A stretch of DNA of 64,000 nucleotides from Bacteroidetes bacterium HGW-Bacteroidetes-6 (GCA_002842495.1 PHDB01000022.1:6010-70009), one strand, 5' to 3'. Shown: positions 2,683 to 34,859, counted from the first letter of the stretch. Notes: generated from the letters alone by a model not told the origin. A program made the numbers and translations.

Positions 2683-2728
2683 TGTCTGTTTTTTACAATT
2701 TCAGCCCCTTGCTCTGAGAGTATTTTTG
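2683..2728 (+). promoter_or_regulatory. Putative AraC site (TGTCTGTTTTTTACAA) and -7 element (TATTTTTG) for the drrABC-like operon
   Basis: TAnnTTTG at 2721-2728. The TGTC-n-TTTTACAA box at 2683-2698 lies just after the AraC stop; operator role is inferred. Confidence 0.4.
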
Positions 2729-2753
2729 CCACATAATTAATAAGGCTGAAACC

Positions 2754-3521
2754 ATGGCGGCAGAAATTCAGATTTGTAACCTTTTCAAAAAATATCCCGA
2801 TGGTGCTGAAGCACTGAAAGGGGTGAGCCTCAAAATCAATAAAGGGCAGTTTTTTACTTTGCTCGGGCCTAACGGGGCCGGCAAATCTACCCTGGTCAAA
2901 ATAATGACAACATTGATTAACAAAGATTCCGGCAAGTTTTCCATAGGTGGTTTAAATCCGGAAGTGAACCCGGTCAATATTCAGAAAATCATTGGAGTTG
3001 CTTCGCAAGACAATGAAATTGACCCTATCGAGAAAGTAGAAAACTTACTTATTTTTCAAGCTGGGTTATTTGGATTATCAAAACCGGAAGCACGCAAACG
3101 GGCGAACGAACTAATTAATTTGTTTCAACTTTCCACAGAGAGAAACAAAAAAGCAAGCACTCTGTCGGGAGGCAATAAACGCAGGTTGCATTGCGCTCTT
3201 GCATTGGTACATCAGCCTCAAGTACTTTTTCTTGATGAGCCAACCGTTGGCATGGATCCGGTAGCAAGGGCAAACTTTTGGGAAACAATTACTCAAATGA
3301 ATAAATCGGAGGGTATAACGGTTTTTCTCACTACACAATATCTGGATGAAGCAGACAAACATGCTACTGAAATGGCCCTCATTGTGGCAGGAGAAATACG
3401 GTATTCCGGGACTATCATTGATTTCAAAAAAATGGTCAATCCCGATGGCGGGTTATCGCTTGATGACAGCTACCTGCAATATATAAAAGCATTAACAATT
3501 CAGGCTTCTTCAAAAAATTAA
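2754..3521 (+). CDS. ABC transporter ATP-binding protein, DrrA-like
   Basis: Walker A GPNGAGKS, signature LSGG, Walker B LFLDEPT, TTQYLDEAD typical of the DrrA subfamily. Confidence 0.9.
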   Translation: MAAEIQICNLFKKYPDGAEALKGVSLKINKGQFFTLLGPNGAGKSTLVKIMTTLINKDSGKFSIGGLNPEVNPVNIQKIIGVASQDNEIDPIEKVENLLIFQAGLFGLSKPEARKRANELINLFQLSTERNKKASTLSGGNKRRLHCALALVHQPQVLFLDEPTVGMDPVARANFWETITQMNKSEGITVFLTTQYLDEADKHATEMALIVAGEIRYSGTIIDFKKMVNPDGGLSLDDSYLQYIKALTIQASSKN

Positions 3522-24722: not shown

Positions 24723-27700
24723 CTATTCTTTTATCACTTTAAACATATGTGTTGCTCCATCTGTTTGGAGTTGAATAAAATAAACACCTGTGGTTTGCGA
24801 CGTCAAATCGAGCAACTGATGCTGAAAAATTCCTTCGTATTGCATTACAATTCGTCCGGTAACATCGGTAACAATCAGCTTCCCAATTATATAGCCGGAA
24901 GAGACAAAAAACACAGGTCCGGTTGTTGGGTTTGGCCACAAAACAATTTTTTCAGCTAAATCGGTCTCAAGTCCAACTGTTTGCTGGACATCAACATCGA
25001 AACTGCATTCGGAGAAGTTTCCATCGGCATCGGTGGCAGTCCAAACAATAGTTGTTGTACCCAATGGCAGCGAAACACCAGCAAGGCTACTGGTTGAATT
25101 GAAATCGTTTATTACCGATTGCAGATTGCAATTGTCGGTTGCCGACGAAGGATCAAATTCTGTTCCCACCACTGTGTAGCTTGTCTGTCCCTGAGGAATA
25201 TCGATTTGCTGATTTCCAATACAAACCAGTTCCGGGTCGCTTACATCAACCACCGATACATTGAAATTCGTTTCGGAATAATTGCCGGCATCGTCGGTAA
25301 CAGTAATCGTGATATTGTTTGTTGAACCAGAAACAGATGTTCCTGGTATTGGACTTTGAACAATCGAAGGACTTGCATCGCAATTGTCGGTAACTACAAC
25401 CAGTGTAGTGTAATCGGGCAAAGAAGCTTCGCACAAAAAATTGGCATCAACAAACTGATCGGGATGTGATGATATAATTACAGGATTATCGTTATCGGTT
25501 ATCAAGGCATTGAAGCTTACTTGCGAAGAATTGCCTCCATCGTCGGTTACGGTTAAAGTAACAGTGTTGCTACTTCCGGAAATTGTTGTCCCTGCAAGTG
25601 GCGATTGCGAAACAGCAAGAAACGGATCGCAATTATCGGTTGCAACTACAGTAGAAGTATAATCAGGCAAAACAGCTTCGCAATTGCTTGTGCTGATCAG
25701 ATTCACATCGTTGTGTACTGAAGTGATTACGGGATTTGTATTATCGACAATGGTTAGCAAAAAAGTTACTTCCGAATAATTACCAGCATCGTCGGTAGCG
25801 CGTAAATGAATGGTATTGGTGTGGCTCGAAATTGTTGCTCCAGCTAAAGGAGTTTGCGTAAATGTCAGATTTGCATCGCAATTGTCGGTTGCTACAATGG
25901 TTCCTGTATAATCGGGAACAATGGCAAAACAATTCATATCGGCATTCACTGTTTGATTGGGATGCGTCGAAGTAATGACCGGATTTGAAACATCTTCGAC
26001 CTCAATATTGAACGAAACTTCGGAATAATTGCCCGCATCGTCGGTAGCACGAAGTGTAACTGTATTTGTAGCTCCAGAAACTATTGTTCCGGCAACTGGA
26101 TTTTGGGTCACAGCAAGTGAAGCATCGCAATTGTCGCTTACAACGACACTTGCAGTATAATCGGGCAATGTTGCATTGCAAAGCGAGCCAGCTGAAATAA
26201 TCTGATCGGGATGCGACGAAGTAATGGTTGGATTGGAGTTATCTGCAACCTCAACATTAAACGAAACTTCGGAATAATTACCGGCATCGTCGGTTGCGCG
26301 GAGAGTGACTGTATTTGTTGAGCCCGAAACTGAAGTTCCCGATACCGGCAATTGTGAAATTGAAACACTGGCATCGCAATAGTCCGTTGCAACAACCGAG
26401 CTGGTGTAATCGGGCAGCAATGCACTACACGAAGCATTAGCATTAATCGTAGCATCAGGGTGTGTAGAAGTAATTGAAGGAGCAGTTAAATCGGCAACTT
26501 CAACATTGAACGACACCTGCGCCATATTTCCATCGTCGTCCGAAACAGATAGAGTAACCGTATTTATTGCCCCGGAAACAGTTGTTCCGACAACTGGCGA
26601 TTGGACAATGCTTAGTGTTGCATCGCAATTATCAGTTGCTTCAACTGAGCTGGTATAATCGGCAAGTGTTGCCTGACAAGAAGCATTTCCCGAAACGATC
26701 TGATTGCTATGCACTGATGAAATCACCGGATTGCTGTTGTCGACGACAGCAACATTGAACGACACCTGACTAAAATTGCCGGCATCGTCGGTGGCAGCAA
26801 GCACAACAGTATTTGTTGTGCCAGAAACAGATGTTCCTGCAAGTGGTGACTGGCTTATTGTGAGACTTATATCGCAGTTGTCGGTTGCAGTAACTGTTCC
26901 CGTATAATCGGGCAATGAAGCAGAACACGCAGCACCTGCATTAATCACCTGATTTGAATGAGTGGATGTAATGACCGGATTTTCAGTTTCAATCTGAATC
27001 TCAGCTGCATTGCTGGTATCGTTTCCCATCATATTTGAAACAACACAACGAAACAGATTATTGTTGAGTCCTGTTGCATTCGAAATTGATAAAACTGCAG
27101 TTTGTGTTCCTGAAAACGGAGCGACTTCGGTAAGATTGCTCCACAGAGTACCACCATTGGAGCTCTTTTGCCACTGATAAGAGGAAACACCCATCCCCGA
27201 GACAGAAAATTGTGTTGAACCAATCAAACATGCATTCAAAACGTCAATTGGTTGAGTGCTTACAGATGGTAGAATTTGTCCAAAAACATATGCTGCACCC
27301 GACGAAGAGCCATTTGCACTATATCCTTCAGCTCCAATTGCAGCTGTATTTCCATTTAATGCGACTGATTTTCCAAAAAATGCACCGCTAAGAGAAAGAG
27401 AAGAAAAGAATTTTGTTTTCTGCGACCATGTTCCTGCATTGTTTTCGAACAAATAGGCAGCTCCTCCATTCGAGACTGTATTGTCGTTCAAATGCGAGCC
27501 AACAAGAACAAAATTTCCAGAGATGCTTACAGAATAACCAAAATAATCGCTTGCAGCTGCATCTCCTGCCAGCAACTTGGTTGTTTGACTCCACGACGAG
27601 CCATTATCGTAGAATATATAAGCGGAGCCCGAGCTTGAGCCATTGTCGTCGTTACCGTAGGCTCCAATAGCAGCATAGCTTCCCGATATTGAAACCGAAT

Positions 27701-29645
27701 ATCCAAAATAGTCGGTTGAAGCAATATCCGATGCGGTCAGAATTATTTCTTCGGACCATGTTCCGGCATTGTTGTGAAAGATATAAGCCGACCCCGAGCT
27801 GGTTCCAACATCGCTATCGCCATAAGCACCTATTAGAATATCATCGCCCGAAATAGCAACAGAAGCTCCAAAGTAATCGTTGCCTGTTAAATCGGAAGCA
27901 ATCAATTTGGAGTCGAATTGCCAGGTCCCACTGTTGTTGTAATAAACATATGCAGAACCATTCGTGAAAGCATTTATTTTATCTCCTTTTGCTCCAATAA
28001 CAATATAGTTTCCTGAAATAGCTACTGAATAACCAAAGAAATCGCCGGCAGTTCCATCAGTAGGAACAAGCTTTGCGTATTGAGCCCAAACGCCTGCAGT
28101 TTTCTTAAAAATATAAACAGAGCCCGAGTTTACACCCATCGGGTCGTCGTTGGGTGAACCAACAACCGCATAATCGGCATCAATAGCAACCGATTGACCA
28201 AAATTATCGTCGGTTGCAGCATCCGAAGCATAGAAACGGCTTTTCCATTCCCACGCTGTTCCATTATCGGAATAAAACCACACCGAGCCGCAATTGGCTG
28301 CTGCGCCATCGTCGGCATATGCCCCTACAATGACATCAGTACCAGATATTGCAACCGAATTGCCAAAATTATCGTTTGCAGCACCAGGGCTTGGCAAAAC
28401 GCGGCTATTCTCGCCCCAATTATCAACTCCACCTTCGTTTTGCGAGTAGAATCCAGCAGAACCTGCGCTTGCACCATATTGAGAATCGCCATAAGCTCCG
28501 CAAATAACTTTATCGGATGAAATGCCTACGGAAAACCCAAAATAGAAATTATTTCCCCCAACCGCTGGCGTAATTTTTTTCTGCTCCAGCCACGAAGAGC
28601 CATTATTATAAAAAACATACGACGAGCCGCAACGCACACCTCCATCGCTTTCGTAGTAAGCCCCAACAACAGCATAGTTGGCATCGATTGAAACGCCAAT
28701 TCCGAAGTAGTCAGCTACTTCGCCATCCGAAGCAAGCAATTTGGCATCCTGTTGCCAGGTTCCTGCATTGTTTTTGAAAATATAAGCGGCTCCATCGTTG
28801 GCAACCACATTGTCTTTTTCGTTGGCCCCAACAATGGCAAAACCATTGGTCATTGCAACACTTTTTCCAAAATAGTCGTAGGCTGTTGCATCCAAAGCAT
28901 TGAGTTTAGCTGTCTGTGTCCAAGTTCCGGCAATGTTTTCGTAAATATATGCCGATCCCGAAGAAGCTCCCATGTCGCTTTCGTTCCAAGCTCCCGAAAT
29001 AATAAAATTCCCAGAAATATCAACCGATGTTCCGAAATAATCGCTTGCTGCGCCATCCGAGGCAGTAAGGATAGCTTGCTGAGTCCAGGTCCCCAAAATA
29101 TTCTGAAAAACGAATACCGACCCCGAGTTTGCTCCAACATTATCGTCGTTGCTGGCTCCAACAGCTATATATTCGCCTGAAATAGAAGCGGATACGCCAA
29201 AATTATCGGTTGCCTGACCGTTAGACGCATTAAGTTTAGCTACTTGTAACCAAATATCACCATAACGCTGAAACACATAGGCTGAACCTGAATTGTTGCC
29301 CAAATCGTCGTCCTGATTAGCTCCAACAACAACATATTCGCCCGAAATTGAAACAGATGTGCCAAAATTATCATCGGCCGAAGCATCCGAAGCTACCAGT
29401 TTCCCGGCCGTATTCCATTGGCCGTTCTCGAAGAAATAGATATATGCTGCTCCTGCGTTCGAGCCAGCCATATCGTCGAATTTCGAACCTACAATAGCCC
29501 AATTTCCATCAATGGAAACCGAAGCTCCAAAGTTATCGCCATCCGAATTGCCTACTGGCAGTAATTGTTGAATTTCCCCCGTGGGTTGTGCTGCCGCAGT
29601 TAATGAGCAGACTGCAAACACCAAAATTAAATAAATCGTTCTCAT
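24723..29645 (-). CDS. T9SS-secreted adhesin-like protein: 14 FG-GAP repeats, Ig domain, 8 HYR-like repeats, type A CTD
   Basis: Signal peptide from ATG 29645; repeated D.FG.SV.ISG...VGA; repeated P.I...H.Q..C...PDY...ATDNCD; C-terminal WPNPT...GVYFIQL...KVIKE. Confidence 0.88.
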   Translation of the reverse strand: MRTIYLILVFAVCSLTAAAQPTGEIQQLLPVGNSDGDNFGASVSIDGNWAIVGSKFDDMAGSNAGAAYIYFFENGQWNTAGKLVASDASADDNFGTSVSISGEYVVVGANQDDDLGNNSGSAYVFQRYGDIWLQVAKLNASNGQATDNFGVSASISGEYIAVGASNDDNVGANSGSVFVFQNILGTWTQQAILTASDGAASDYFGTSVDISGNFIISGAWNESDMGASSGSAYIYENIAGTWTQTAKLNALDATAYDYFGKSVAMTNGFAIVGANEKDNVVANDGAAYIFKNNAGTWQQDAKLLASDGEVADYFGIGVSIDANYAVVGAYYESDGGVRCGSSYVFYNNGSSWLEQKKITPAVGGNNFYFGFSVGISSDKVICGAYGDSQYGASAGSAGFYSQNEGGVDNWGENSRVLPSPGAANDNFGNSVAISGTDVIVGAYADDGAAANCGSVWFYSDNGTAWEWKSRFYASDAATDDNFGQSVAIDADYAVVGSPNDDPMGVNSGSVYIFKKTAGVWAQYAKLVPTDGTAGDFFGYSVAISGNYIVIGAKGDKINAFTNGSAYVYYNNSGTWQFDSKLIASDLTGNDYFGASVAISGDDILIGAYGDSDVGTSSGSAYIFHNNAGTWSEEIILTASDIASTDYFGYSVSISGSYAAIGAYGNDDNGSSSGSAYIFYDNGSSWSQTTKLLAGDAAASDYFGYSVSISGNFVLVGSHLNDNTVSNGGAAYLFENNAGTWSQKTKFFSSLSLSGAFFGKSVALNGNTAAIGAEGYSANGSSSGAAYVFGQILPSVSTQPIDVLNACLIGSTQFSVSGMGVSSYQWQKSSNGGTLWSNLTEVAPFSGTQTAVLSISNATGLNNNLFRCVVSNMMGNDTSNAAEIQIETENPVITSTHSNQVINAGAACSASLPDYTGTVTATDNCDISLTISQSPLAGTSVSGTTNTVVLAATDDAGNFSQVSFNVAVVDNSNPVISSVHSNQIVSGNASCQATLADYTSSVEATDNCDATLSIVQSPVVGTTVSGAINTVTLSVSDDDGNMAQVSFNVEVADLTAPSITSTHPDATINANASCSALLPDYTSSVVATDYCDASVSISQLPVSGTSVSGSTNTVTLRATDDAGNYSEVSFNVEVADNSNPTITSSHPDQIISAGSLCNATLPDYTASVVVSDNCDASLAVTQNPVAGTIVSGATNTVTLRATDDAGNYSEVSFNIEVEDVSNPVITSTHPNQTVNADMNCFAIVPDYTGTIVATDNCDANLTFTQTPLAGATISSHTNTIHLRATDDAGNYSEVTFLLTIVDNTNPVITSVHNDVNLISTSNCEAVLPDYTSTVVATDNCDPFLAVSQSPLAGTTISGSSNTVTLTVTDDGGNSSQVSFNALITDNDNPVIISSHPDQFVDANFLCEASLPDYTTLVVVTDNCDASPSIVQSPIPGTSVSGSTNNITITVTDDAGNYSETNFNVSVVDVSDPELVCIGNQQIDIPQGQTSYTVVGTEFDPSSATDNCNLQSVINDFNSTSSLAGVSLPLGTTTIVWTATDADGNFSECSFDVDVQQTVGLETDLAEKIVLWPNPTTGPVFFVSSGYIIGKLIVTDVTGRIVMQYEGIFQHQLLDLTSQTTGVYFIQLQTDGATHMFKVIKE

Positions 29646-29813
29646 TGCTGGTTTTTTGCTGCAATTTCGAGTAATAATGCAGCCGTTAATACACCAAATT
29701 GGTGAACCAAACAATTTTATGGGTAAGGCTATGCGAAGAGGTGGTGGAAATTATGACAGAATTGTCCTTTATATTTCGCACCAATGCAAAAAAATGCTTT
29801 GAAAGATTCGGTT

Positions 29814-30659
29814 TCACTCAAACCGCTTCAAATTTGCTTTCACAAAACCCCATTCTGGTGTTTGAATGTCATTGTCGCAATTCAAACTGTACCAGGGACT
29901 TAAATCGCTATTGTTGGGATTGATGAGTATTTGAATTTCCTGCGCAGGCATGTAACTTTGAGCAAGCATAAATACTTTTTCGCCGCTTGTTTCATCCACA
30001 GCCATATCAACAACTATTACGGCATGCCCGGGAGAACCGCCACGAATAAGCACATCTCCAATTTGCATGCTTTCCCAATCGGTTTTCACCAACCCTTTTT
30101 CGAGCGATAAGGTTCCGGCGTACATAAAAACGGTTTCGAGATAATTCCACAAATCGTCATGGGTATTCGATGCAGCTGTTTTGGAAACCCAACTGCAATT
30201 GTTGCCGTTTACGGCTACTCGTTTGCCGCTCATCCATTTCGAATAATCGGCTCTGAAACCACTCGTGAAGTTGAAATGTATTTCAGAATAAAGCTTACTT
30301 TCCCATAAATATTCTGCTCTTAGCCTGATAATAGCATCGGCGCACTGATGCAGGTTTTTTGTCCCGATAGGCAAATCGACCACAGCGCAATAAACACCCG
30401 ATGCTGGCTTTTCGCGACCATCGAACAACAAAGCATTGGTACCGTCGGGTTTAAGAGGGAGCTTTCGGAGCCAGGCGTCAAACGATTCCGATTCGGTGTC
30501 AATACGTTTATAGCCATCGGGAGGCAGAAACCGCTCCTCGATTGTTGCGCCCTGCTTGTTGATTGTATTGGAATTTACTTGATTGTTCGATTTGCTTTGC
30601 CCGCACGAGCTACATAAAAATGCAAAAAGCAGAATCGAAATTCCAGAAAATCTCACCAT
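29814..30659 (-). CDS. DUF4846-family lipoprotein
   Basis: Lipobox CSSC; QCADAIIRLRAEYL, GGSPGHAVIVVD, LAQSYMPAQ motifs. Confidence 0.75.
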   Translation of the reverse strand: MVRFSGISILLFAFLCSSCGQSKSNNQVNSNTINKQGATIEERFLPPDGYKRIDTESESFDAWLRKLPLKPDGTNALLFDGREKPASGVYCAVVDLPIGTKNLHQCADAIIRLRAEYLWESKLYSEIHFNFTSGFRADYSKWMSGKRVAVNGNNCSWVSKTAASNTHDDLWNYLETVFMYAGTLSLEKGLVKTDWESMQIGDVLIRGGSPGHAVIVVDMAVDETSGEKVFMLAQSYMPAQEIQILINPNNSDLSPWYSLNCDNDIQTPEWGFVKANLKRFE

Positions 30660-30662
30660 AAT

Positions 30663-31760
30663 CTATTTGTTTTCGCCGGGATAAAGCATGTGGTATGTAC
30701 ACACCAGTGGTCCGTCAAGACCTGGTTCATGTAAATGCATACCGTCGCCTCGACACCATTTCCAGAGGTCGCATTTGGCACAAACACCTTTTTTCATTGG
30801 CTTCCGGTCACGATACTCTTTGTATTTATTGTCCCAAACATCGAGAAAATTGTCTTTGTAAATATTTCCCTGAACATAACCACGGTTAATGTTGGGGCAG
30901 GCGCCAATGTCGCCATTGGCAAGAATTGAGCTTACGTGGATTCCGGCACGGCAGAAAAATACGCCATCGCGCACCAGACCTTCGTAATCGCCCAAAAAAC
31001 CATCGCAACCCGACGAAATACGAATCTGACCTTCGGCACGCGTTTTCAAAATATAATCGAATACCGAGCGAAAAGTGGCATCGTCGAGCATCAAATCGGG
31101 ATTGGTTGCAGCACGACCAATGGGATCGATGGTAAAAATTCGCCAACGTTTTACGCCCATGCCAAGCAAAAGTCTTTTCACCTCGTCGAGCTCACCAATG
31201 TTGCGATTGTTGACACAGGTAACCACATCGTAAACCATATCGGGTTCGTCGGCCAAAAGCTTTATTGCCGCAACTGCACGTTCGAACGAACCTTCACGTC
31301 CACGAAGCCAGTCGTGGTTGGCTTTCATCCCATCGAGACTGATTGTTGCTGAACGAAGTCCTGCATTGCGAAGCGAACGAAAACGTTCTGGTGTCATTGC
31401 ATAACCATTGCTTACCATTCCCCAGGGGAAACCCATGTTTTTGAGTTGATGGCCAACTTCTTCCAAATCTTTACGCACCAGCGGCTCACCACCCGAAACA
31501 ACAATCATCACCTTTCCCGGATTGTAGCGGGTTGCAACCTGTTTGCAGACACTCAGAAAATCGTCGGCAGGCATATCGGGAGCATTTTCAACAATTTTGC
31601 AATCACTACCACAATGCAAACACGCGATGTTGCAGCGCGAAGTGCATTCCCAGAAAAAATAATTCAGTTCGTGGAGTTTGGCCTGAACACGTACGTAGCG
31701 TGAGTGAATATTGAAAACCATTCGCTTTTTAAAACGAAAACGACGTCGCAGATTACTCAT
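30663..31760 (-). CDS. Radical SAM/SPASM peptide/protein maturase (rSAM/lipoprotein-system type)
   Basis: CNIACLHC, SGGEPL, SLDG..HD..RG; SPASM CRAG...GDIGACP and CAKC...WCRG. Confidence 0.9.
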   Translation of the reverse strand: MSNLRRRFRFKKRMVFNIHSRYVRVQAKLHELNYFFWECTSRCNIACLHCGSDCKIVENAPDMPADDFLSVCKQVATRYNPGKVMIVVSGGEPLVRKDLEEVGHQLKNMGFPWGMVSNGYAMTPERFRSLRNAGLRSATISLDGMKANHDWLRGREGSFERAVAAIKLLADEPDMVYDVVTCVNNRNIGELDEVKRLLLGMGVKRWRIFTIDPIGRAATNPDLMLDDATFRSVFDYILKTRAEGQIRISSGCDGFLGDYEGLVRDGVFFCRAGIHVSSILANGDIGACPNINRGYVQGNIYKDNFLDVWDNKYKEYRDRKPMKKGVCAKCDLWKWCRGDGMHLHEPGLDGPLVCTYHMLYPGENK

Positions 31761-31762
31761 AA

Positions 31763-32122
31763 TCAATTGTTTTCAGGATTTTGCACTCCATATTTTGTAG
31801 TATAATAATCAGGATCGTAGTTTGGAATGACCCCATAATCGGTAGCTGGAAGAGTGTTTGGATTGTAAACCGGCTTGAGAACTGGGCTGGTAACATGAGT
31901 TGTTGTACTTTGAGTTGAAGAAACTGGAGTTTCAACTTTCTCTTGAATTTTCACAAGACCCGACAGTTCTTTGGTATTGATTTTTTCTCCTGATTCGCTA
32001 TTCGAAACCGTTTTGCTGCACGACACCATCGAAATGCTACCGGCACTTAAAGCCGAAAGCAAGAATCGGAAAAGCCATGCTTTCCACCGGTCGATTTGCT
32101 GATTCAGGGGAGGATAACGCAT
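31763..32122 (-). CDS. rSAM-associated lipoprotein precursor 5 (2 YG cores)
   Basis: Lipobox-like SMVSC; TDYGV, TKYGV. Confidence 0.75.
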   Translation of the reverse strand: MRYPPLNQQIDRWKAWLFRFLLSALSAGSISMVSCSKTVSNSESGEKINTKELSGLVKIQEKVETPVSSTQSTTTHVTSPVLKPVYNPNTLPATDYGVIPNYDPDYYTTKYGVQNPENN

Positions 32123-32124
32123 GA

Positions 32125-32520
32125 CTAGCCATCGATAAAATCAACAGGAACTCCATATCGAGTCACAGGAACATCGTGTTCGTATGGCGGACCATACTTG
32201 GTTGGCGTTATGTTGTTATCAATCGGTACGCCATACTTGGTAACAGTAGTATGTTTTTGAACATTCATGATACTATCTTCGCGCACTTTTGCCAGCGAAT
32301 CGGCTTTAACTTTTGCAATACTGTCGTTGCGCACATTTTCAATCGAGTCGAGGCGTGCTTTTTCGTTCACCTGATTGATTGAATCTTGATTGACTTTTTG
32401 CTCTGTTTTATTACCACCCGAACATGCAGACAGAATACTTGCGATACCAATCGTTGCAAGAATATTGCGCAACAACCGTGCGTGCAGCGTCAAAAAGCGA
32501 TAGCGGATTTTATGGCTCAT
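32125..32520 (-). CDS. rSAM-associated lipoprotein precursor 4 (3 YG cores)
   Basis: Lipobox LSAC; TKYGV, TKYGP, TRYGV. Confidence 0.8.
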   Translation of the reverse strand: MSHKIRYRFLTLHARLLRNILATIGIASILSACSGGNKTEQKVNQDSINQVNEKARLDSIENVRNDSIAKVKADSLAKVREDSIMNVQKHTTVTKYGVPIDNNITPTKYGPPYEHDVPVTRYGVPVDFIDG

Positions 32521-32549
32521 GTCAAATTTATTTATTGTTTATTGAGAAC

Positions 32550-32557
32550 CAAAGGTA
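32550..32557 (-). promoter_or_regulatory. Internal -7 promoter element (TACCTTTG)
   Basis: Exact TAnnTTTG 29 nt upstream of ATG 32520. Confidence 0.5.
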
Positions 32558-32572
32558 GATTATTTTCTGCAA

Positions 32573-32884
32573 TTATTCCACACGAATTACACCATACATC
32601 AATTGTTCGTGAATAGTGTCGTATTCCGGATTGGGTCGTGGAACACCATATTCGCAAATAGTACCGGGATCAAAATAAGCGGGTTTAGAAGTATCGATTG
32701 GCAAGATAACAGTTGAGTCCGATGGATCGGGAATCACCGATGTGGAATCGGAAGGCTTTACATGAGTCTGATGCTTTGGAAATAAACAACCAGTTGCCAA
32801 AATAGGCAAGCTTAAAACAATGAGACAGTTGCGCAGCAATTTTGAGTAGAAACGCAGAAACTGGCTATTTGTTTTTTTTCTCAT
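32573..32884 (-). CDS. rSAM-associated lipoprotein precursor 3 (2 YG cores)
   Basis: Lipobox LATGC; CEYGV, LMYGV. Confidence 0.78.
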   Translation of the reverse strand: MRKKTNSQFLRFYSKLLRNCLIVLSLPILATGCLFPKHQTHVKPSDSTSVIPDPSDSTVILPIDTSKPAYFDPGTICEYGVPRPNPEYDTIHEQLMYGVIRVE

Positions 32885-32898
32885 CTTAATTGATTTAA

Positions 32899-33234
32899 TT
32901 ACTCGTATTCAGGTGCTTCGAATCTCATCTCCGGCACTTCTATCTGAATTGGAGTAGCAACTACGCCATAGCACGGCGTTACTTGAATGGGAGTTTCGTA
33001 AACCGGAACAATAGTGTCAACTTTAATTGCCGAAGTGGTATCGACCTGAATAATTTTAATTGTATCGTTGCTAACAATGGTCTGAGAGTCGGGTTCGGCC
33101 ATACAGGTGTTATTGGCAGGCTGATTCGAAACCTGGCAAGCCGATGCAATTACAGGCAAACTGAGCAAAACAATAAAACGTTGCAATAATGCAGCATACA
33201 TTTTTCGCACAGTGTTTTGTTTTCCTGTCAACAT
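32899..33234 (-). CDS. rSAM-associated lipoprotein precursor 2 (1 YG core)
   Basis: ATG 33234 lies 1 nt after the upstream stop; lipobox ASAC; PCYGV. Confidence 0.72.
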   Translation of the reverse strand: MLTGKQNTVRKMYAALLQRFIVLLSLPVIASACQVSNQPANNTCMAEPDSQTIVSNDTIKIIQVDTTSAIKVDTIVPVYETPIQVTPCYGVVATPIQIEVPEMRFEAPEYE

Positions 33235-33235
33235 C

Positions 33236-33646
33236 TTAAAAGTTTTGCGGAACACCATATTTGGTAAGAGTTGGGGTTTCTTCCACGGGAATATCAATAT
33301 CGTCATAAACAGGAACTACACCATATTCGCAAATTGGACCCGGATCGTTGTAAATTACAGGCGGCACATAAACAGGAATTGAGGTTTGTACTTTTGCCAA
33401 ACTATCTTCTTTTGCTTTTAACGCAATGGAATCGGCTTTTGCTTTAGCAATACTATCGGTTTTTGCAATTGAATCAAGCCGATGTGCTTCGTTCACTTTT
33501 TTTAGCGAGTCGTCGGTATTGCTTTGTTTTTGAGTATTTCCGGAGCCACACGAAGCTAAAATAGCCGAAAAGCTAATCATTGCGAGCATGTTGCGAAGAA
33601 TTCTGGCTCTGAGTCTGTAGATACGGCGCATCAGTCGGAAATCCAT
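33236..33646 (-). CDS. rSAM-associated lipoprotein precursor 1 (2 YG cores)
   Basis: Lipobox LASC; CEYGV, TKYGV. Confidence 0.8.
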   Translation of the reverse strand: MDFRLMRRIYRLRARILRNMLAMISFSAILASCGSGNTQKQSNTDDSLKKVNEAHRLDSIAKTDSIAKAKADSIALKAKEDSLAKVQTSIPVYVPPVIYNDPGPICEYGVVPVYDDIDIPVEETPTLTKYGVPQNF

Positions 33647-33844: not shown

Positions 33845-34354
33845 TTAAAGCAAAGATTGCTTCCTTATCGCATACACCACTTCGTCAAGCAATTCGTTAT
33901 TTTTAACAAGTGTTTTTTCGAATCGGGCTTCGACTGCAAAACCTGCTTTTTCGAGCACCCGATGCGAAGCTATATTACGCCCAAAGCAGCCAGCAAAAAT
34001 ACGATTTACACCAAACGTATCGAAACCATATTGCACCATTTGCTTCACAGCTTCGGTCATGATGCCTTTCCCCCAGTAAGGTTCGGCAAGCCAGTAGCCA
34101 ATTTCGGCATTGTTGCGTCGTACATCGAAATTGGGGAACACGCCAATGGAACCCACCGCTTCACCATCCACGTCGATGGCAAAAACCTGCAACGGATTGA
34201 ATTTGTTCATTTTGCGAACAAAATCTTTTGCGGCTTCGCGGGTGTAGGGATGCGGAAACATATCGGTCAGATTCATTGCCACAAGCGGATTGTTGGCATA
34301 TCTCACCAGGCTTTTAATATCACTGCGCTTCCAGGGGCGAAGGGTAAAGTTCAT
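33845..34354 (-). CDS. RimJ/RimL-type GNAT N-acetyltransferase
   Basis: EIGYWL.EPYWGKGIMTEA, NIASHRVLEKAGF; TACTTTTG box at 34376-83. Confidence 0.88.
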   Translation of the reverse strand: MNFTLRPWKRSDIKSLVRYANNPLVAMNLTDMFPHPYTREAAKDFVRKMNKFNPLQVFAIDVDGEAVGSIGVFPNFDVRRNNAEIGYWLAEPYWGKGIMTEAVKQMVQYGFDTFGVNRIFAGCFGRNIASHRVLEKAGFAVEARFEKTLVKNNELLDEVVYAIRKQSLL

Positions 34355-34859
34355 GTGCAATTAATTTTCGCAAGGCAAAAGTAAAAATATTACAGATACT
34401 CCGAAGTTTTTAGGACAAACGCATCAAAGTCGGATCAAAACAAATTTTGTGAACGAATCAATCACACATACCGGAATGTGTATGAATCTCTTTGAAAACA
34501 CACATCTGACCAGAGAAAACATGATACATTTTTAACTACTGTAACTACCTGAATCTGCATTTTATTTTTGCAGACACAACGTACTCCAAAAACCAGACTA
34601 TTCAAAAAACAGAGTTTTTGGGGAGAAAATTGATTATTTTTGTCATCCTGATCAGGTATGAATAAGGATTGAAAATGCACAAAGAAAATTCAAACGTGCA
34701 ATAAAAACGGACATACCCATGGGGGTTCAATATATTTACGGGATTTTTCTCCCGCAGACAAAGTTTTCACATGTCATGAAACACAACTCTGTAATCAGCA
34801 ATATTTTACACCTAACAGTTATTGTAACTTGAATTCAGTTTTAACTAAACTTAATTTGT

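Follow-up and report, generated by a model that had tools for sequence, protein, structure and literature searches.

A radical SAM/SPASM enzyme and five tandem Tyr-Gly lipoproteins in a Bacteroidetes genome: a possible lipid-anchored form of tyramine splicing

What does a radical S-adenosylmethionine (SAM) enzyme with a SPASM domain do beside five small lipoproteins that carry repeated Tyr-Gly motifs? The question is raised by a locus at positions 30663-33646 of the window, i.e., the whole 64,000-nt stretch of DNA from Bacteroidetes bacterium HGW-Bacteroidetes-6 (GCA_002842495.1 PHDB01000022.1:6010-70009) that was analysed; all features of the locus lie on the minus strand. An earlier note, made from the sequence alone, had likened the locus to the systems of the PlpX-type radical SAM/SPASM spliceases, which excise a tyramine equivalent at XYG sites and leave an alpha-keto-beta-amino amide (PMC11414181, PMC9811515). 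The answer that we favour, with modest confidence, is that the enzyme of the window likewise splices tyramine out of lipoproteins at x-Y-G, and that it does so before they are exported by the Sec pathway. By this analogy the locus is probably a lipid-anchored version of tyramine-excision chemistry, and lipid-anchored splicing is proposed because the nearest sampled relatives of the enzyme cut tyramine from peptide backbones. The family of the enzyme, its adjacency to Y-G proteins across phyla, the conserved Y-G sites and a conserved long N-region of the signal peptides are direct observations.

Tyr-Gly sites and their linkage to the enzyme

The five lipoprotein open reading frames (ORFs), here called precursors A to E, are co-oriented and 103-136 aa long, as seen from an ORF listing together with reading of the sequence. 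They are tightly packed, with intergenic gaps of 1-52 nt. Together they hold ten x-Y-G-(V/P) motifs (10 YG per 600 residues), and the five lipobox ORFs and all ten motifs are present exactly as the earlier note had listed them. When each protein was shuffled separately over 20000 rounds the mean was 1.06 YG and the maximum 7, and none of the 20000 rounds reached 10. Long ORFs of the genome have a background of 2.6 YG in 1000 aa, and of 0.04 in 1000 aa for YG-[VPTAQSG]-P.

The surroundings of the dipeptide were compared in 122 unique sites pooled from related loci, in which Y and G were imposed by the selection and only the flanks are informative. Position -1 is variable (K53, M20, E14, C6, Y5, D5, R5), position -2 is led by T44, C18 and A17, position +2 by V52 and P18, and position +3 is P in 79 of the 122 sites, which gives a flank consensus of [T/C/A]-[K/M/E/...]-Y-G-[V/P/T]-P-[P/V]-[A/D]-[D/Y]-[Y/F]. 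No reactive side chain is conserved around x-Y-G in the 122 sites, and a reaction of the backbone fits these sites because a reactive partner residue is not conserved. An invariant Tyr-Gly with a free preceding residue is described as the hallmark of splicease substrates (PMC11414181, PMC9811515). The sites are also retained where the rest of the protein is not. In an alignment of precursor C with its orthologs (6 orthologs, 23-83% identity) M1, Cys33, P68, Y70 and both Y-G-V triplets are invariant, and in orthologs down to 23% identity the linkers diverge while the Y-G-V triplets stay.

It had been claimed that YG is the only motif shared by the five proteins beside the signal peptide. This needs to be amended, as the signal peptides have a long basic N-region that is itself conserved among the partner proteins. 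A profile of 17 partner N-termini, which is partly circular in that three of the 17 training sequences come from the window, was run against all ORFs of the genome and found only precursors A-D (E 3e-14 to 3e-5), the next match being at 0.096; precursor B, which was outside the training set, was found at E 3e-5. Because the profile finds A-D only, the leader-like N-region appears more specific than a generic lipoprotein signal peptide.

The linkage to the enzyme was followed through 40 related loci, most of them from Bacteroidales, two from Clostridium and one from a member of Myxococcota. A protein with a signal peptide and YG, adjacent to the enzyme gene and on the same strand, is found in 38 of the 40 by a heuristic combined with reading of the ORFs. 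The signal-peptide heuristic alone gave 37 loci, of which L038 appears to be a false one; reading of the ORFs brought in L023 and L028. Further false matches included L021 6242 and L014 1749, and precursor E was missed. No partner is seen in L038 and L040, where the enzyme gene is cut off by the contig edge and just its 3' end is left. The pattern of signal peptide and YG is matched by only 14 of the 943 remaining ORFs of these loci. The partner genes are mostly upstream of the enzyme gene (downstream in L022, L025 and L037), and the adjacency spans three phyla, or four if a Treponema plasmid is counted. Neither a peptidase gene nor an exporter gene accompanies the system consistently across the 40 loci.

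The earlier note had singled out the five-gene, multi-core layout as the unusual part of the locus. Of the 40 related loci, 11 hold arrays of 3-7 partner genes, with 5 genes in L001, 6 in L002, at least 3 in L003, 7 in L004, 3 in L007, 5 in L014, 4 in L015, 4 in L016, 6 in L017, 3 in L018 and 3 in L029, and the layout is therefore recurrent and not unique. Two other kinds of partner were seen. In the loci of the L005-L013 type the partner is one small lipoprotein in which K-Y-G-[PV]-P is repeated two or three times. In other loci the partner is of the TIGR04134 type and has its YG close behind the lipobox Cys, which in some proteins itself precedes the Tyr (A-C-Y-G); partners in distant loci pass the TIGR04134 model with 78-88 bits (cut-off 39.8). 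Bacteroides thetaiotaomicron holds both TIGR04133, the family of the enzyme, and TIGR04134 above their cut-offs, and the gene pair is also present in Parabacteroides distasonis.

The enzyme, its family and its relatives

The radical SAM/SPASM enzyme is encoded at 30663..31760 on the minus strand (365 aa), from an ATG at 31760 that lies 2 nt past the TGA of precursor E; the ORF listing offers TTG 31766 as an alternative start, giving 367 aa. It matches NCBIfam TIGR04133 (rSAM_w_lipo) with 488.1 bits (E 1.3e-146, cut-off 425) over profile positions 1-345 of 350. The next-best families are AhbD (129.6 bits), TIGR04053 (129.3), TIGR04347 (126.5), TIGR04103 (125.7) and MftC (108.9). In Pfam it matches Radical_SAM (72.6 bits) and SPASM (35 bits), and the cluster motif CxxxCxxC is formed by C45/C49/C52 and followed by G-S; the position of the gene 2 nt after the array is as first described. 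No RiPP recognition element (RRE; RiPP, a peptide that is ribosomally synthesized and then modified after translation) or PqqD domain is found in the enzyme, and there is no room for one because only about 35 residues precede the cluster motif. A genome-wide profile search of the 4.04-Mb, 140-contig genome gave a single TIGR04133 copy, that of the window. A search of solved structures gave generic radical SAM matches only (BlsE, SkfB, PqqE, BtrN and MoaA), with no splicease among them.

The pair TIGR04133/TIGR04134 had been named in the earlier note. The enzyme bears this out, and TIGR04134 does exist as a 'radical SAM-associated putative lipoprotein'; the precursors of the window do not belong to it, since A-E have no match in Pfam or NCBIfam and none to TIGR04134 even at E <= 10. 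The gene pair itself is known from NCBIfam, and its function is unassigned there: in release 20.0 both TIGR04133 and TIGR04134 (lipo_with_rSAM) are classed as 'hypothetical equivalog' without a functional name.

To place the enzyme relative to the spliceases a stand-in for PlpX was needed. The entry IPR026482 is one that we take to be the same as NCBIfam TIGR04103. PlpX belongs to IPR026482 (PMC11002830). The stand-in was a Nostoc plasmid gene annotated to a TIGR04103-type family ('nif11-class peptide radical SAM maturase 3'). Its surroundings have the layout expected of a type I system, in that the enzyme gene stands between an ORF of 71 aa and the gene of a Nif11 precursor whose C-terminal end reads L-Y-G-L-P-P. 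When the window's enzyme was compared with plasmids by tblastn, the matches outside TIGR04133 were led by an Agathobacter radical SAM enzyme (152 bits), the Nostoc maturase (129 bits) and an Aureibacter radical SAM enzyme (120 bits); the Nostoc gene is the best specifically named plasmid match outside TIGR04133, and matches to MftC, GDL-motif and TIGR04053 enzymes reached at most 109 bits.

In maximum-likelihood (ML) trees TIGR04133 is sister to a clade of Agathobacter, Nostoc, Tropicibacter, GDL/TIGR03913 (DUF1843-associated) and Aureibacter enzymes, here called the PlpX-like clade, and the support for the joint group is 99/98 in a tree of 28 rows with 5 outgroups. The two sister clades have features in common: G-S after the third cluster Cys is present in 19 of 19 of their rows and in 0 of 12 outgroup rows, and G-[FY]-x-G-x-Y-E is a further shared stretch. 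Of the five sister-clade enzymes whose surroundings were inspected, four have an x-Y-G neighbour, i.e., L-Y-G in Nostoc, P-Y-G in the DUF1843 proteins of Azospirillum and Aureibacter, and M-Y-G in Agathobacter; in the neighbourhood of the Tropicibacter enzyme a small YG ORF was looked for and not found. As sister-clade neighbours also carry x-Y-G, the association with Y-G substrates looks ancestral to TIGR04133 and the PlpX-like clade. To our knowledge the spliceases are the only members of this group that have been studied biochemically. MftC and PqqE fall outside the group in both trees.

The Agathobacter rectalis plasmid is of some interest in its own right. An unannotated small ORF ending in V-M-Y-G-T-G-V-R-M (L053 about 2704-2916, plus strand) lies just upstream of the gene for the radical SAM/SPASM enzyme of the PlpX-like clade, and a gene for a major facilitator superfamily (MFS) transporter comes next. 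We regard this gut Firmicute locus as a candidate for a splicease-type system.

Docking, proposed mechanism and alternatives

A complex of the enzyme (26-row alignment) with precursor C (6-row alignment) was predicted in three runs along with three controls. The interface score ipSAE was 0.80 (median of three) versus 0.02 for the best control; the mark used for this score is reached by 58 of 80 solved complexes and by 2 of 110 mismatched pairs, a calibration that is only rough because custom alignments were used. The runs share at least 70% of their contacts, and the predicted local distance difference test (pLDDT) of the partner is at least 51. The confident contacts form two groups. Residues 7-24 of precursor C, i.e., the N-region and the start of the hydrophobic stretch, lie on the conserved N-terminal helix of the enzyme (13-31), and residues 80-82 (G-V-P of the first site) lie on enzyme residues 89, 118, 139, 141, 178-180, 207 and 268-269. 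The barrel contacts adjoin in sequence the invariant G92-G93-E94-P95, N120, S143-D145 and W208-R209 and the nearly invariant D180. The model supports, but does not show, binding of precursor C with its first YG in the barrel; an enzyme-substrate pair is of a kind for which complex prediction is rarely informative, and the reaction type is not indicated by it. An AlphaFold2 model likewise puts XYG in the active centre of a splicease (PMC11414181).

In the reading that we favour the locus forms a two-component maturation system, in which the cytoplasmic TIGR04133 enzyme would modify the x-Y-G sites of the five precursors before export. The RRE-less enzyme is predicted to dock its own N-terminal helix on the long, basic and amphipathic N-region of the signal peptide, which would serve as leader, and the Y-G site is predicted to enter the barrel of the enzyme. 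By analogy with the PlpX-type spliceases a tyramine equivalent would be excised and an alpha-keto-beta-amino amide left behind, and the residue before the Tyr (K, R, E, D, M or C) would supply the ketoamide's side chain. The modified chain would then be exported by Sec and lipidated at Cys33 or Cys35, and the cut by signal peptidase II would also remove the leader. This would result in lipid-anchored, mostly unfolded peptides with up to ten electrophilic ketoamides. Peptides that have undergone splicing, with its mass loss of 135.06 Da, act as inhibitors of Ser/Cys proteases (PMC11626197). It is tempting to speculate that the products are protease inhibitors tethered to the envelope, which would be directed at Lys/Arg at five of the ten sites. 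The displayed combinatorial library of such inhibitors that the earlier note envisaged is equally a matter of speculation.

For the family as a whole we consider it possible, though less assured than the proposal for the window, that Sec/lipoprotein signal peptides double as RiPP leaders, that a splicease-type enzyme installs ketoamides and that signal peptidase II is the leader peptidase. The same account may, tentatively, be extended to the arrays of the lineages represented by metagenome-assembled genomes and to gut Bacteroides and Parabacteroides. With comparable reserve, proteins of the gut type would bear a single site at the N-terminus of a mature lipoprotein or of a cargo protein of the type IX secretion system (T9SS).

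Several observations weigh against tyramine splicing. The enzyme does not reach the cut-off of the PlpX-family model TIGR04103 (125.7 versus 725 bits), and by hidden Markov model (HMM) score TIGR04103 is no closer to it than AhbD, TIGR04053 or TIGR04347. It is here that the splicease-like reading of the earlier note falls short, whereas the variable x over the 122 sites, the sister clade and the YG in the modelled barrel agree with it. In 26 TIGR04133 sequences the SPASM motif (enzyme residues 329-344) reads C-x2-C-x5-C and the usual fourth Cys is absent; His344, six residues beyond the truncated motif, is invariant in the same sequences. In the PlpX-like clade CX2CX5CX3C is complete with its fourth Cys, and the environment of the auxiliary cluster therefore differs between the two. 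TIGR04133 is sister to, and not inside, the clade with the sole sampled TIGR04103 enzyme, and the 27 pairs confirmed by Scott et al. (2022) are absent from the trees, which contain this one TIGR04103 sequence and several long-branched rows. Support for the joint group falls to 82/73 in a tree of 31 rows with 12 outgroups, including AhbD/NirJ-like enzymes, from which five TIGR04133 rows (L004, L012, L016, L019 and L026) were left out. Conservation of the motif in orthologous loci, on which the first interpretation had been made to depend, holds for the 38 loci with a partner and for the precursor C orthologs; Y-S stands in place of Y-G in the ortholog of precursor B in L001 (965-1279, C-Y-S-V) and in a D-like protein of L007 (4307-4642, K-Y-S-V). 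L001 is the closest relative, with an enzyme 95% identical to that of the window, and these Y-S sites are either decayed sites or a tolerated variant. Not all YG sites are spliced in the known systems either, as the DYG site of RcsA is described as left unmodified (PMC11626197). The leader profile missed precursor E and a YG lipoprotein on another contig (C78, see below). No acidic residues directly follow the lipobox Cys in the lipoproteins of the window, as judged by eye, and because they are absent just past the Cys surface display is not indicated. Finally, the reaction type is read from relatedness and the motif.

Some of these points would suit a TIGR04133 enzyme that acts on the same Y-G sites by another chemistry, such as a Tyr crosslink, a three-residue cyclophane (Y-G-V/P), modification at C-alpha or C-beta, epimerisation or cleavage between C-alpha and C-beta of Tyr. 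The linkage and the docking are equally compatible with such a reaction since they do not fix its type, TIGR04133 is a separate clade with a long stem (0.76-1.05 in the ML trees) without the fourth SPASM Cys of the PlpX-like clade, and MftC and further SPASM families score in the same range as TIGR04103. We nevertheless consider another chemistry rather unlikely. The side chain of a crosslink partner is not conserved, positions -1, +2 and +4 being variable, and the residues A, G, S and P, all found at +2, would accept a C-beta crosslink poorly or not at all; the invariant Tyr-Gly with a free preceding residue is what splicease substrates display, and the nearest sampled relatives of the enzyme adjoin x-Y-G peptides. 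It is distinctly improbable that Y-G-x-P is a structural, sorting or binding motif and that the enzyme has another substrate, with the lipoproteins as mere linked neighbours. Such a motif could explain why contigs C78 and C16 hold YG candidates at a distance from the enzyme gene, and why the TIGR04134-type motif sits at the predicted mature N-terminus (A-C-Y-G, A-Q-Y-G), a possible position for a sorting signal. It would not account for an adjacency kept in 38 of 40 loci and three or four phyla, for a model that puts YG in the barrel at a score far above the controls, or for sister-clade enzymes acting on peptides with the same motif, and no other candidate substrate gene is conserved across the 40 loci. 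That the small ORFs are spurious, or the number of motifs a matter of chance or composition, can practically be dismissed: although A-E are without any Pfam or NCBIfam match, no shuffled set reached ten YG, orthologs with leader, lipobox Cys and YG sites are present in many loci, and the ORFs are co-oriented and closely packed.

If tyramine splicing is taken as the working model, its likeness to the known systems can be stated in some detail. The PlpX/PlpY-PlpA and RhaX/RhaA spliceases are likewise radical SAM/SPASM enzymes and act on substrates with one or several x-Y-G in which x is variable. Type I splicease systems need a small Y protein, and binary systems without Y use a leader helix and, like the locus of the window, have no separate RRE protein (PMC11414181). 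The sister clade holds the TIGR04103 enzyme, the C-G-S signature is common to both clades, and the L-Y-G-L-P-P site of the Nostoc Nif11 precursor resembles the Y-G-[VP]-P of the window loci. In contrast to the spliceases, the enzyme of the window scores below the TIGR04103 cut-off, belongs to a separate clade and is without the fourth SPASM Cys, and its precursors have Sec/lipoprotein signal peptides instead of a Nif11/NHLP leader. There is no gene for a Y protein, a leader peptidase or an exporter in the locus, and unlike spliceotides the product would stay lipid-anchored.

Within its own family, the enzyme passes the TIGR04133 model and the TIGR04134 partners of distant loci carry the same YG after the lipobox; precursors A-E differ from these partners in having no beta-rich domain, in carrying YG near the C-terminus behind long linkers, in forming a five-gene array and, B excepted, in being multi-site. 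The GDL-motif/DUF1843 maturases (TIGR03913) are members of the sister clade with small partners that have P-Y-G near the N-terminus. In contrast to the proteins of the window these partners look cytoplasmic, are helical and have no signal peptides, and the enzymes are 474-516 aa long with C-terminal extensions. MftC and PqqE are also of the radical SAM/SPASM class and act on Tyr in a small ribosomal peptide, but they need PqqD-type chaperones, and the motifs of their substrates differ from that of the window.

Should the proposal be true, ribosomal formation of beta-amino acids and ketoamides would move from secreted RiPPs to membrane-anchored proteins of the envelope, and these would be the first lipid-anchored envelope peptides and proteins with a spliced backbone. 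A radical SAM maturase would also become connected with general secretion and the lipoprotein pathway, the role of leader falling to the signal peptide and that of leader protease to signal peptidase II. TIGR04133/TIGR04134 would gain a function that can be tested in a genetically tractable gut commensal (B. thetaiotaomicron), and the arrays, in which Tyr is preceded by K, R, E, D, M or C, would constitute a natural set of tethered electrophilic warheads. A search limited to one library of papers did not find TIGR04133 by name, nor a link between splicease and lipoprotein or between splicease and Bacteroidota. Scott et al. (2022) screened 3418 radical SAM/SPASM enzymes for YG-rich neighbours, detected such neighbours in 189 genera, and confirmed 27 pairs (PMC10849128). 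This screen may already cover the TIGR04133 family, in which case the finding would be less new.

Gene layout and further observations

A basic N-region is followed by a hydrophobic stretch and a lipobox-like x-x-[GAS]-C in each of the five precursors (5/5, by pattern matching only), with the lipobox Cys at residue 33 in A-D and 35 in E. All are read from the minus strand. Precursor A (33236..33646, 136 aa; lipobox LASC, Cys33) has a long basic N-region and a linker of helical DSIAK-like repeats, and its sites are E-Y-G-V (nt 33317-33328) and K-Y-G-V (nt 33251-33262), both of which are kept in the L001 ortholog. Precursor B (32899..33234, 111 aa; lipobox ASAC, Cys33) has the single site C-Y-G-V (nt 32962-32973), where the L001 ortholog has YS and the L002 ortholog YG. 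Its start is most likely the ATG at 33234, 1 nt past the stop of A, because the signal peptide read from there resembles the other four; the ORF listing also gives a start at 33306, for a protein of 135 aa overlapping A. Precursor C (32573..32884, 103 aa; lipobox ATGC, Cys33) has E-Y-G-V (nt 32642-32653) and M-Y-G-V (nt 32588-32599). Precursor D (32125..32520, 131 aa; lipobox LSAC, Cys33) has a linker of DSI repeats and carries three sites, namely K-Y-G-V (nt 32227-32238), K-Y-G-P (nt 32188-32199) and R-Y-G-V (nt 32149-32160). Precursor E (31763..32122, 119 aa; lipobox MVSC, Cys35) has D-Y-G-V (nt 31829-31840) and K-Y-G-V (nt 31784-31795).

The linkers of A (33380-33500) and D (32250-32370), both on the minus strand, consist of D-S-I-A-K-like repeats of about 8-9 residues each and probably form an amphipathic helix. 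Spacers of this kind recur in partner lipoproteins of L003, L004, L014, L017 and L034. Any role of these helical spacers in the system is a matter of speculation.

Two proteins with YG were noted on other contigs of the same genome. The first, on contig C78 (25440-25712, plus strand; L051 4941-5213), is an orphan lipoprotein of 90 aa with three K-Y-G-[P/V/A]-P sites. It is of the type of the L005-L013 partners and sits among housekeeping genes with no radical SAM gene nearby, and the enzyme of the window probably has it as a remote substrate. The second, on contig C16 (L048 1824-1018, minus strand), is a TIGR04134-type protein of 268 aa (56.2 bits, cut-off 39.8) with a predicted signal-peptidase-I site followed directly by Q-Y-G-A-P, and a beta-rich domain. 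By eye its C-terminus resembles a T9SS C-terminal sorting domain (CTD), and proteins similar to it occur inside L015 and L017. A second TIGR04133-like paralog (354 aa; L066, G003:C3) was seen in the Petrimonas genome that provided L021.

A GNAT acetyltransferase gene (33845-34360, minus strand; Acetyltransf_3, 114.5 bits) lies directly upstream of the array and the gene for a DUF4846 lipoprotein (29814-30659, minus strand; 342.9 bits) directly downstream of the enzyme gene. They were considered as members of the system and rejected, being present in only 3 and 2 of the 40 loci, respectively; as this synteny is limited to the closest relatives, both are placed outside the system. Further downstream, at 24723-29714 on the minus strand, an ORF of 1663 aa shows by eye many repeats of the D-N-F-G-x-S-V-x-I-S-G type, followed by about 10 repeats of about 80 aa with D-N-C-D and a C-terminal tail like that of T9SS cargo.

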